Shown here in pieces: positions 53,589 to 55,354 of a stretch of DNA of 64,000 bases (positions are counted from its first letter, which is position 1; each line of letters starts with the position of its first letter). This DNA is from a virus. The translations under genes and the position numbers were made by a program. The stretch lies in the UHGV virus genome UHGV-0275551. One strand, 5' to 3'. The notes beneath the pieces were generated by a model, which saw only the letters and a program-made list of their open reading frames with translations, did no database searches and was not told the origin of the DNA.

Positions 53589-53616
53589 TTGACATAGAAA
53601 ATTTGGTGAGTATACT
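53589..53616 (+). promoter_or_regulatory. sigma70-type promoter (TTGACA-N16-TATACT)
   Basis: Read directly; overlapped by inverted repeat GGTGAGTA...TACTCACC. Confidence 0.6.
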
Positions 53617-53646
53617 GAGCATCATAAACCAACAGGTACTCACCAG

Positions 53647-53952
53647 CATCACTTAAGAGTCTTCTAAGAGGGTTTTTAAGTGATGTCCGGTAGGGTAAGG
53701 TCGGGTTAAGTATTGTTCGGTACGGTAGGGTAAAGTACGGTACGGTAAGGTAAAGCAGGGTATGGGTAGTTAGTCTCAGCTACATTAAAATGAGACTTAC
53801 ATCACTTAAGAGTCTTTAAATTACACTCGATAAAGTATCTCATAGGGTTTTTAAGTGATGTTTGGCAAGGCAAGGTGCGGCCCGGTCGGGTAAGGTGCGG
53901 TGATGTATGGTAAAGTATGGGTGGATGGTAGTAGCCACGTTAAAAATCTACC
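53647..53952 (+). other. composite structured G/T-rich repeat element, copy 1 (two sub-units)
   Basis: 10-bp inverted repeats CATCACTTAA/TTAAGTGATG, GGT-rich tracts, terminal hairpins AGTCTCA...TGAGACT and GGTAG...CTACC. Confidence 0.7.
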
Positions 53953-54028
53953 AAGTTTCTAAAGAGTCTTCTGTTGAGGGTTCTTTACAAACAACTTAAC
54001 AATCAACTAAAGTGTGGAGCTAAATGCT

Positions 54029-54616
54029 ATGAAACTGTTAAATATCAAAATCACTGGTACTCGTCCTTTCCTGAGCCACGCTGATACGCTGTCAGACCCA
54101 TTAAATCCTCTGACAAAATATCACAAGTCTCTGTCCAGTAAACGTAAAAAGACTGACGAAGACTATGCGCTCTTAGCAGAAAGCCAACTGGTAACTTCTT
54201 GTTACTACGATGAGCAGTTAGGTTTTGTTATGAACGGTGAGATGATTGAGGCTTGTATCAAGTCTGGTGCAAAACTCAACAAACTTGGTAAGGTAATTGA
54301 CCGAGCCATTATGCTGACAGATGTAGTCTTCCCAATGACTATCAAGAACTGTCCAGCAAACCCACAAGAACTTGCTAAGAATCCAGACTTTATCTATGCT
54401 AAGTCTGTTAAGATTGGTACAGCACGAGTTATGAGCTACCGTCCAATCTTCCGTGACTGGTCTGTAGAGTTCGGTTTGATGTTCGATGAAGAGCAAATCA
54501 CCAAAGAAGAACTCTTGATGGTTCTGGAAAATGCTGGTAACCTTTGTGGTGTAGGTGATTGGCGTCCACGCTTTGGTCGTTTTTCTGTAGAAGTTATTTC
54601 AGAAGGTAACGTTTAA
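54029..54616 (+). CDS. hypothetical protein
   Basis: Track start GTG 54014; ATG 54029 with SD GGAG. Confidence 0.55.
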
Positions 54617-54618
54617 TT

Positions 54619-55059
54619 ATGAATACAAAAGCATTAGCAGCAAAGTTTAGTTACGGTGACACTGTATCACACTCTGAGATGGATACCTTCTTAGGTATTG
54701 TGAAGCCAACTTATCAAGGTGACATTGTTAAGTACGAAGATGAAATGAAGGCTTATGCACTTACACGTCTAAACCGACTTGAGAAGTTTATTGAGAAGCT
54801 TCTTAAAGAAGAGAAGATTTATCTGGTTGCTTCAATGGGTGTTGGTTATCGTGTGGTTGAACCTAAGCATCAAGCAACTATTGCAAAACGCAAAATGTCT
54901 GGTAAGATTGGTCGAGCTTTAAAGCAAGCCACTCAAGCAATTGAGAATGTGAATACTATGGCACTTAGCCACCAAGAACGTTCACGACTAATTGAACAGC
55001 AAAACCATTTAGCTGCTATGAAAGCTAACATTAACAAGCAACGCAGAAAACCTTTCTAA
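54619..55059 (+). CDS. hypothetical protein
   Basis: 146-aa ORF. Confidence 0.55.
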   Translation: MNTKALAAKFSYGDTVSHSEMDTFLGIVKPTYQGDIVKYEDEMKAYALTRLNRLEKFIEKLLKEEKIYLVASMGVGYRVVEPKHQATIAKRKMSGKIGRALKQATQAIENVNTMALSHQERSRLIEQQNHLAAMKANINKQRRKPF

Positions 55060-55070
55060 GTTGACTAGGT

Positions 55071-55086
55071 AGCCTCTTCGGAGGCT
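55071..55086 (+). other. stem-loop AGCCTC-ttcg-GAGGCT without a U-tract
   Basis: Perfect 6-bp stem with UUCG loop immediately after the 54619-55059 stop. Confidence 0.5.
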
Positions 55087-55087
55087 C

Positions 55088-55354
55088 CTCATTAAAAGGT
55101 CTTTAAACAAGGTCTTTTAATGAGGTAGTATACGGTATGGTGGGGTAGGGTGAGGTCTGGTTTGGTAAGGTAGGGTCTGGTATGGGTAGTTAGTCTCAGC
55201 TACATTAAAATGAGACTTACCTTTTTAAAAGGTCTTTAAGAGGGTCTTTTAATGAGGTAGGGTAGAGTTCTGTTGAGTACAGCGATGTGTGGTTGGGTCT
55301 TGTAAGGTTTGGTTTGGTATGGAAGGATGGCAGTAGCCTTATAAAAAATCTGCC
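55088..55354 (+). other. composite structured G/T-rich repeat element, copy 2 (two sub-units)
   Basis: Inverted repeat CTCATTAAAAG/CTTTTAATGAG, GGT-rich tracts, identical 37-mer with copy 1, terminal hairpin GGCAG...CTGCC. Confidence 0.7.

Follow-up and report, generated by a model that had tools for sequence, protein, structure and literature searches.

Evidence for a complete type II VIPR locus of the phiSUSP1 clade in a wV8-like Felixounavirus genome

Viral Interference Programmable Repeat (VIPR) is an RNA-guided system known from two preprints (bioRxiv 10.64898/2026.04.26.720920, also PMC13142463, and 10.64898/2026.04.26.720927) and a structure (PDB 36pp). In the portions of these sources that were available, VIPR is made up of Vipr, a minimal single-RRM RAMP protein with a G-loop and a thumb; a vap accessory gene; and vrRNAs, the guide RNAs, which contain 9-16 YNNGG repeats and a conserved tail. 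In the SUSP1 clade, this tail folds as a pseudoknot. Vipr assembles into a polymer along the vrRNA, with each repeat taking up one protomer; G1, G2, and Y3 are buried while N4 and N5 are presented. N4 and N5 pair with DNA, every third base of which is skipped, and transcription is silenced. Guides act on either strand and require no protospacer-adjacent motif. The vrRNAs of phiSUSP1 are ~100 nt long and co-purify with Vipr, and small-RNA sequencing of this phage identified one vrRNA upstream and three downstream of the genes. The targets of 18 of 20 assignable guides lie in a satellite phage found in Escherichia coli genomes, and the skipped base is usually the codon wobble position. The vap gene raises protection and is predicted to encode a DNA-binding protein. 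The subject of this work is positions 53589-55412 of the virus genome UHGV-0275551, analysed as a window of 64,000 nt of one strand. This region is almost certainly a complete type II VIPR locus of the phiSUSP1 clade.

All coordinates are window positions, and the VIPR locus is on the + strand. The window belongs to a Felixounavirus of the wV8-like type (Felix O1-like phage). Positions 53400-55500 are 94.6% identical to Escherichia phage wV8 and have matches in 232 phage records. The locus is placed between the DNA ligase gene (52293-53432) and a homologue of wV8 gp93 (55447-55830). A first-pass annotation, made from the sequence alone, had described two composite repeat elements of two sub-units each, flanking two genes (54029-54616 and 54619-55059), and this arrangement is present where it was placed. 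The four sub-units are vrRNA genes, and the genes that they flank are vipr and vap1. The locus is thus of a known kind, a member of an experimentally characterised clade described in April-June 2026, and not a new type of element. Protein identity, RNA anatomy and covariation, the guide code, and the targets of two guides (A1 and B1) were computed here. Ribonucleoprotein formation, the filament and R-loop structure, and transcriptional silencing are taken from the preprints.

The two flanked genes are as follows.

54029-54616, + strand: vipr, a RAMP (Cas7-like) protein of 195 aa; a profile search of PDB sequences hits a single entry, 36pp_D ('SUSP1 Vipr protein'), at E = 2e-81.
54619-55059, + strand: vap1, VIPR accessory protein; 99.3% identical to the gene directly after vipr in phiSUSP1.

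Membership of the phiSUSP1 clade is defined in the available preprint text by Vipr identity of >90%, and the Vipr of the window is 98.5% identical to that of phiSUSP1. The available part of the structural preprint (PDB 36pp) names 13 residues that grip G1, G2, and Y3 and clamp the DNA strands. All 13 are kept in the window protein (H17, K33, R39, E71, M72, K82, G87, K88, R138, C173, D177, W178, and R179). An AlphaFold2 model of the protein has a pLDDT of 94.7, and its best matches among PDB folds are Csm3 and type VII Cas7. The PDB copy used for this search predates the Vipr entry, and the RAMP fold is therefore independently confirmed. A conserved C-terminal motif that begins with G resembles the RAMP glycine-rich loop. 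The Vipr family has >500 members and no Pfam domain. Searches of Pfam and PADLOC gave no match for either Vipr or Vap1, and PHROGs returned only families of 'unknown function' for both. The genes had been regarded as a cassette carried between the repeats. They are instead an effector and its accessory protein, not passive cargo.

In the public records inspected, vipr and vap are labelled hypothetical proteins and no VIPR annotation is yet given. The vrRNAs are unannotated in some of these records, and parts of them are marked only as 'DR_4', 'repeat_region' or 'possible binding site of StbAB' in EU877232.1, KT184315.1, and MN850647.1. Older genome papers on Felix O1 and its relatives list direct repeats, none of them at this locus.

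The phiSUSP1 locus is the closest described relative. Beyond the two proteins, the loci have in common the position between DNA ligase and the gp93 homologue, the GGY/NN design of the vrRNAs, the types of tail and hairpin module, the satellite family targeted, and the rule of one skipped nucleotide. They differ in that phiSUSP1 has 1 + 3 vrRNAs while the window has two upstream and two downstream, and in the NN sequences of the guides. The window phage is also a Felixounavirus (wV8-like), not the phage used in the experiments. These differences are allelic and not of kind. The unit parser used here, when applied to phiSUSP1 (L014), finds one upstream and three downstream units, in agreement with the published small-RNA sequencing.

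The vrRNA units of the window are ordered A1 (53647-53799), A2 (53800-53952), vipr and vap1, B1 (55087-55219), and B2 (55220-55354). Each unit opens with an inverted repeat at its 5' end, continues with a G/T-rich tract of 64-84 nt, and closes with a structured element at its 3' end. The two composites were known to share an identical 37-mer; it is present, and the full exact repeat is 42 nt long (53759-53800 = 55179-55220). The G/T-rich tracts are the guides.

53684-53763, + strand: guide tract of vrRNA A1, 16 pentamers in register; the first, TGTCC, shares 2 nt with the end of the hairpin.
53859-53918, + strand: guide tract of vrRNA A2, 12 pentamers in register, including one that overlaps the hairpin end.
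55124-55183, + strand: guide tract of vrRNA B1, 12 pentamers in register, including GGTAG, which overlaps the hairpin end.
55256-55320, + strand: guide tract of vrRNA B2, 13 pentamers in register, several with a degenerate first G.

A GGT-rich tract of ~80 nt had been reported for each sub-unit, and the tracts are indeed there, but the five-nucleotide code that they carry was missed. Each tract is a strict period-5 GGY/NN array with the profile D-G-Y-N-N. The profile was derived from 26 distinct related arrays, which were parsed into 83 units, 64 distinct tracts, and 831 pentamers. Position 1 is G in 82% of pentamers and C in 0%, position 2 is G in 93%, position 3 is T in 82% or C in 9%, and positions 4 and 5 are near random. 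Tracts contain 10-17 pentamers in the family and 12-16 in the window. Their length changes in exact 5-nt steps in 62 of the 64 tracts, with lengths of 54, 59 ... 89 for one tail type and 61, 66 ... 86 for the other. Tandem Repeats Finder reports periods of 5, 10, 15, 20, and 25 within the tracts. In-phase GGT, scored as at least 5 of 10 consecutive pentamers, is found only in these four tracts when both strands of the 64-kb window are scanned. Even where the flanks of two phages are ~95% identical, their tracts defy alignment, yet the pentamer profile is kept in all of them. The repeat elements are far beyond what chance would produce.

Two other explanations take the G-rich composition as their starting point. 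One regards the tracts as G-quadruplex-prone or R-loop-prone DNA, for example a transcription-primed replication origin, and the first-pass annotation had listed G-quadruplex-prone DNA as a candidate. ColE1, T4 oriF, and the pentamer repeats of immunoglobulin switch regions are parallels. The non-template strand is G-rich and poor in C (almost none at positions 1 and 2), a strong promoter lies upstream, and the locus is situated amid replication genes, DNA polymerase and ligase. G-quadruplexes and R-loops can form without a conserved pyrimidine after GG, an exact 5-nt register flanked by two structured RNA modules, or hypervariable NN, and would not account for the linkage of the tracts to a RAMP protein across unrelated phages.

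In the second explanation, the RNAs would be sponges whose GGU repeats sequester an RNA-binding protein of the host. Numerous short G-rich motifs that recur every 5 nt between protective terminal structures are what a sponge would look like; CsrB, which titrates CsrA, and the (G/U)AG-N2 repeats bound by TRAP are examples of the type. Here, the binding partner is the phage-encoded Cas7-like RAMP, and a sponge has no need for hypervariable dinucleotides that match the genes of a competitor at codon positions 1-2. The sponge explanation is accordingly given next to no credence, and the tracts are read as guides.

TRAP is nevertheless instructive. It is a closed 11-mer ring that acts in cis in the attenuation of the Bacillus trp genes and binds RNA with (G/U)AG-N2-3 repeats. 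Like Vipr, it is an oligomeric protein that reads a triplet every 5 nt on single-stranded RNA and leaves the spacer bases free. The spacers in TRAP targets carry no information, whereas VIPR forms an open helical filament and its 'spacers' are the information.

Several further candidates were dropped. These were a Chi-like or RecA-preferred GT-rich hotspot, a T7-type primase site array (GGTC), RfaH ops-like decoys (CGGTAG), BREX GGTAAG sites, a sponge for tRNA CCA ends, a Shine-Dalgarno sponge for ribosomes, and adenine mutagenesis of a (GGTAA)n template in the style of diversity-generating retroelements. None of them accounts at once for the unvarying register, the free NN positions, and a RAMP gene linked to the tracts.

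The structured elements at the two ends of each unit are listed next. H1 and H2 are hairpin types, and P, T1, and T2 are tail types.

53647-53685, + strand: 5' hairpin H1 before vrRNA A1; -17.5 kcal/mol, z = -6.3, 18 bp including G·U pairs.
53800-53860, + strand: 5' hairpin before vrRNA A2, a long variant with a 22-nt apical insertion; -15.8 kcal/mol, z = -3.9.
55087-55125, + strand: 5' hairpin H2 before vrRNA B1; -17.1 kcal/mol, z = -6.5.
55220-55257, + strand: 5' hairpin H2 before vrRNA B2, with one U·U mismatch; -11.1 kcal/mol, z = -1.9; included in the hairpin covariation alignment.
53764-53799, + strand: 3' tail of vrRNA A1, a P-type H-type pseudoknot with an A-rich loop 3; S1 53766-53769/53780-53783, S2 53772-53778/53791-53797.
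53919-53952, + strand: 3' tail of vrRNA A2, a T1-type pseudoknot; S1 53921-53924/53935-53938, S2 53927-53931/53948-53952.
55184-55219, + strand: 3' tail of vrRNA B1, a P-type pseudoknot identical to the A1 tail, within the 42-nt exact repeat.
55321-55354, + strand: 3' tail of vrRNA B2, a T2-type pseudoknot (AAGG/CCUU, GGCAG/CUGCC), from the covariation alignment.

The 3' elements had been described as terminal hairpins. They are structured, as proposed, but are H-type pseudoknots. Compensatory changes in the stem arms, noted between the copies in this genome, hold across the 26 related arrays, and the suggestion of selection on structure is backed by this covariation. The 5' hairpin has 13 modelled pairs, with 94% of cells paired and 6 of the 13 pairs changed on both sides. 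Between H2 and H1, the exchanges are A-U/C-G, C-G/U-A, U-A/A-U, and A-U/G-C. The long A2 variant is also found in Moogle and other relatives. The P-type tail is paired in 100% of cells across 11 variants, with three covarying S2 pairs; its stems are GUAG/CUAC together with AGUCUCA/UGAGACU, or AAUCGGA/UCCGAUU in variants. The T-type tail is paired in 96% of cells, also with three covarying pairs. T1 and T2 differ by three compensatory pairs, GUGG/CCAC versus AAGG/CCUU and GGUAG/CUACC versus GGCAG/CUGCC. The T2 tail closes the array in 26 of 26 relatives, Felix O1-type phages included. As a control, 500 shuffles, scored for percentage paired and for covariation, and slid registers were used. Hairpin, P-type tail, and T-type tail each exceed all 500 shuffles on both scores and all slid registers.

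The structures also identify the strand and the molecule. The 5' hairpin has one G·U pair that never varies and another position that is G·U in 10 of 24 variants. These pairs fit the + strand only, since G·U would be a C-A mismatch on the other strand. The opposite strand of the A1 hairpin folds to only -8.6 kcal/mol. Pseudoknots with A-rich loops and plus-strand G·U pairs point to RNA, contrary to an explanation at the level of DNA quadruplexes or R-loops. The RNAs match no family in general collections: Rfam 15 gave no match at the gathering threshold in the window, preQ1 riboswitch-like pseudoknots included, and at a permissive threshold only chance-level matches in 53560-55460 (E >= 3). 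A tRNA/tmRNA scan found nothing.

The guide code was tested against the satellite. The 64 distinct Felixounavirus guides were compared with 12 fetched satellite variants, and an NN match of at least 85% was counted. With one skipped base, 38 of the 64 guides reach this level. With zero, two or three skipped bases, none of the 64 does so in the 12 variants, and neither do any shuffled guides. The published code with its 1-nt skip is thus reproduced independently. A DNA-level G-quadruplex or R-loop does not predict NN matches to a satellite at one specific spacing and fails to explain the target matches, the conserved pyrimidine after GG, and the 5-nt register alike; its probability is negligible. 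The proposal that the elements are structured non-coding RNAs, also made at first pass, is correct.

Two guides of the window phage have targets. Guide A1 matches 29/30 at L152 10238-10281, in a satellite gene of strain FORC_041, where shuffled guides reach a maximum of 22. In six satellite variants, the same 185-aa gene is matched at 23-29/30. NN always falls on codon positions 1-2, and the skipped base is the wobble position. Guide B1 matches 22/24 at L162 7869-7903, in the long non-coding region of the satellite in strain TW11681, again with a 1-nt skip. Shuffled guides reach a maximum of 18 and other skips 17-18.

The boundaries of the guide were examined by extending 38 guide-target alignments past the part used to find them. 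The pentamer made up of the last 2 nt of the hairpin and the 3-nt linker matches targets at 0.86, while the two pentamers further upstream match at ~0.4. The guide therefore begins exactly at the 3' edge of the hairpin. The conserved last GGTAT before the tail matches targets at only 0.46-0.58.

The satellite itself is an ~11-kb island that encodes serine recombinases, a tape-measure protein, and a baseplate protein along with small genes. It was reached by comparing the A array by BLAST with 5,426 complete E. coli genomes; a vrRNA-like tract with a T1-like tail occurs in 153 of the chromosomes. The first gene of its operon is found in 367 genomes, and the fetched variants occupy several integration sites. 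Its proteins adjoin, in accession number, those that the preprint cites for its satellite. In the available preprint text, the satellite is inferred to parasitise these phages. The satellite of E. coli SCU-387 carries a vrRNA of its own (L148 14930-15130), with a GGY/NN tract and a T1-like pseudoknot tail whose second stem is changed to GUCG/CGAC. This vrRNA stands alone with its own TTGACA promoter and a GC-rich terminator. It is without a 5' hairpin, and the satellite is without a vipr gene.

Taken with the published mechanism, the locus may be expected to operate as follows. A strong early promoter would transcribe, in order, the A1 and A2 vrRNAs, the genes vipr and vap1, and the B1 and B2 vrRNAs. 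Each vrRNA would be a run of GGYNN pentamers capped by a 3' pseudoknot. Vipr, the Cas7-like RAMP, would take one pentamer per protomer, bury G1, G2, and Y3, and present N4 and N5. The presented dinucleotides would pair with double-stranded DNA that bears the same dinucleotides one skipped base apart. The resulting protein-held R-loop would block transcription, an effect that Vap1 would enhance. The natural enemy would be the ~11-kb satellite integrated in E. coli chromosomes. The near-identity to phiSUSP1 suggests that vrRNA expression, co-purification with Vipr, and silencing also apply here, and that this phage expresses and uses its VIPR system.

Several points weigh against the identification as a working VIPR locus. 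The best satellite match of guide A2 is 18/22, which is not significant, and that of guide B2 is 19/24, which is not above controls, both against the 12 satellite variants. Guide A2 has an exact 22/22 match in two IMG/VR loci of one metagenomic phage (L154 5431-5462 and L155 7838-7869). The match is inside a 362-aa open reading frame (ORF) of a phage of ~40% GC that has no relatives in the phage collection. There, the skipped base is codon position 1 and not the wobble position, and for this reason the match was not counted as a target. It may be due to chance or be a non-satellite target. The core patterns of B1 and B2 have no exact match in IMG/VR. The covariation derives from few discrete module types, and so from few independent events. 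The 5' hairpins are unexplained by the published model, as far as it is laid out in the available text. The supporting biology comes from two 2026 preprints of one laboratory that are not yet peer reviewed.

Class 1 CRISPR-Cas, with its Cas7/Csm3 filament, is the best-known system of related design. Both have the RAMP fold with a G-rich loop and a thumb, a fixed number of guide nucleotides per protomer, a guide with a conserved handle, and a use against mobile genetic elements. The window locus has no CRISPR repeats, no cas1/cas2 adaptation genes, no Cas6, and no PADLOC match. A CRISPR guide reads 5 of every 6 nt, while VIPR reads 2 of every 5, non-contiguously, and skips every third base of the target. 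The window locus also differs in that it is encoded by a virulent phage, and type II VIPR silences rather than cleaves. A CRISPR-Cas locus was rejected as an explanation, with neither identical direct repeats separated by unique contiguous spacers nor cas genes; only the RAMP fold is common.

Vibrio phage ICP1 reportedly carries a CRISPR-Cas system directed against the PLE satellite. As in the window, the phage is lytic, and the guides of its RNA-guided system match a chromosomally located satellite that is a parasite of the phage. The ICP1 system is a canonical type I-F CRISPR-Cas with adaptation and DNA degradation, whereas the window locus has no adaptation module.

Related phages vary in which parts of the locus they keep. 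The array is found in 231 phage records and vipr in only 118 Ounavirinae records. Approximately half of the Felixounavirus records with the array keep vrRNAs and are without vipr, so the flanked genes do vary between relatives, a comparison proposed at first pass. In the complete genomes of FO1a (species Felixounavirus felixO1) and UAB_Phi87, tblastn and profile searches found no vipr or vap; the best E-values were 0.35-1.5, compared with 8e-84 for the window as control. Each of these phages keeps one or two promoter-driven vrRNA units. FO1a carries a single hybrid unit that joins an H1 hairpin to a T2 tail (L004 2558-2690). L010, L012, L016, L026, and L028 also have 1-2 units without vipr or vap; the whole genomes are L156 + L157 and L164 + L165. 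Some orphan guides of this kind still match the satellite, with 20/20 for UAB_Phi87 unit 1 and 86-90% for units in L012, L016, and L028.

This variation bears on a third explanation, also a candidate at first pass, in which the composites would be recombination sites (attC-like, or boundaries for homing) through which the pair of genes is mobilised. About half of the Felixounavirus records have the cassette and the rest do not, the cassette boundaries fall inside vrRNA units (as in the hybrid unit of FO1a), and the flanking arrays have the 42-nt exact repeat in common. There is no integrase or recombinase at the locus, and arrays without the cassette keep the units, the promoter, and the GGY/NN pattern. 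The number of units per array, which ranges from 1 to 5 among relatives, fits ordinary homologous recombination between repeats and not site-specific exchange, and the elements have a guide function. Recombination sites as the function of the composites are very unlikely; what holds of the proposal is that the presence or absence of vipr-vap is bounded exactly by vrRNA units. The absence of vipr-vap is consistent with deletion by recombination between the repeats. An integron attC cassette was likewise rejected, with no recombinase near the locus and units that are transcription products with a guide function. The composites are best regarded as pairs of vrRNA genes.

A scan of IMG/VR for (GGTNN)6GGT returned >120 loci, many of them degenerate, non-microsatellite arrays in unrelated viral contigs. 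By tblastn, 32 of the loci found by pattern encode a Vipr homologue of 23-43% identity beside the tracts. In L031, the gene just upstream of the array ends in a motif like the C-terminus of the 195-aa window protein. Long degenerate GGTNN arrays are seen at L031 6090-6500 and in L147, L137, L138, L127, L129, L114, L146, and L035-L038 (a 189-kb contig). Some of the unrelated arrays have 6-7 tracts that each end in GGTAAGGCTAATGG, or that end in GGCAG with a register shift, and many lie directly 3' of a distant Vipr homologue. The unrelated arrays are probably other VIPR types, e.g., staggered arrays.

The remaining features of the locus are regulatory or lie between the units.

53589-53616, + strand: sigma-70-type promoter TTGACA-16-TATACT, 11/12 consensus matches; predicted to serve the upstream array and the vipr-vap operon.
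53605-53644, + strand: leader with an 8-bp inverted repeat GGTGAGTA / TACTCACC, arms 53605-53612 / 53637-53644; kept in relatives.
53956-53990, + strand: free copy of the apical hairpin motif (AAAGAGTCTTCT..GAGGGTTCTTTAC) without flanking stem arms, between the A2 tail and the vipr ribosome-binding site.
55067-55089, + strand: small GC hairpin with a UUCG loop and no U-run, right after the vap1 stop; -13.6 kcal/mol, z = -2.4; kept in relatives.
55355-55412, + strand: AU-rich 13-bp hairpin with a U-run, which probably terminates the locus; -17.3 kcal/mol, z = -5.9.

The near-consensus promoter had been recognised from the start, and the AYO145A record carries a promoter annotation at the equivalent position. 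Its first 25 nt are identical in 29/29 related arrays because that sequence served as the search anchor. The GGTGAGTA arm overlaps the -10 box and the TACTCACC arm is at about +20, so the repeat could be an operator or a read-through hairpin. Because 55355-55412 fails the GC-rich terminator scan, termination there is only inferred. The same hairpin overlaps a promoter-like site for the next gene (TTGACA at 55374, 10/12 matches). The stem-less apical copy (AAAGAGTCTTCTGTTGAGGGTTCTTTAC) is the third member of direct-repeat family D5; the spacing is 153-154 nt, in phase with both hairpins, and this copy is also kept in relatives.

A dense tandem-repeat cluster lies elsewhere in the window, at 9613-9680, 10077-10195, and 10396-10707 (e.g., CTCTTAACAACTCTTCAAAG, 4.4 copies, 94% identity). 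Its repeat core CTCTTAA is the reverse complement of TTAAGAG in the apical part of the vrRNA 5' hairpins, and the non-coding region of the satellite contains motifs like it. A 48-aa hydrophobic ORF (phrog_22006) at 53436-53582, which directly separates the ligase gene from the VIPR promoter, is conserved in Moogle and absent in FO1a. A 183-aa ORF (50478-51029) overlaps the 3' end of the DNA polymerase gene (47777-50506). At this position, FO1a is annotated with an HNH endonuclease beside the polymerase gene, and wV8 has no gene there.

The result replicates the GGY/NN code, the 1-nt skip, and the satellite target independently and by computation alone, and adds targets for two guides of this phage. 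VIPR reportedly follows a new logic for recognising DNA with RNA guides and has been proposed as an ancestor of CRISPR effectors, so its loci deserve to be recognised when phages are annotated. The loose ends are the orphan guides and the inter-guide hairpin. The guide boundary, the G·U-rich covarying hairpin, and the orphan guides were not found in the preprint text available, and the latter two are possibly new; the terms 'orphan', 'in trans', 'standalone', and 'helper' are not used in that text. The 5' hairpins presumably have a role in the processing or insulation of the arrayed guides. A G·U-rich, covarying 18-bp hairpin at the 5' edge of each arrayed guide may be an RNase III-type maturation signal. 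That orphan guides are shared goods or decoys and that the inter-guide hairpin is a maturation signal for a host RNase is a tentative proposal, rather doubtful at present. If the hairpin is such a signal, guides would be processed by a route that does not need Cas6. If the orphans do function, their guides would be taken up by Vipr that a co-infecting relative provides in trans, and the Vipr-less vrRNAs of the satellites would likewise need Vipr in trans. Alternatively, the orphan guides may act as decoys.

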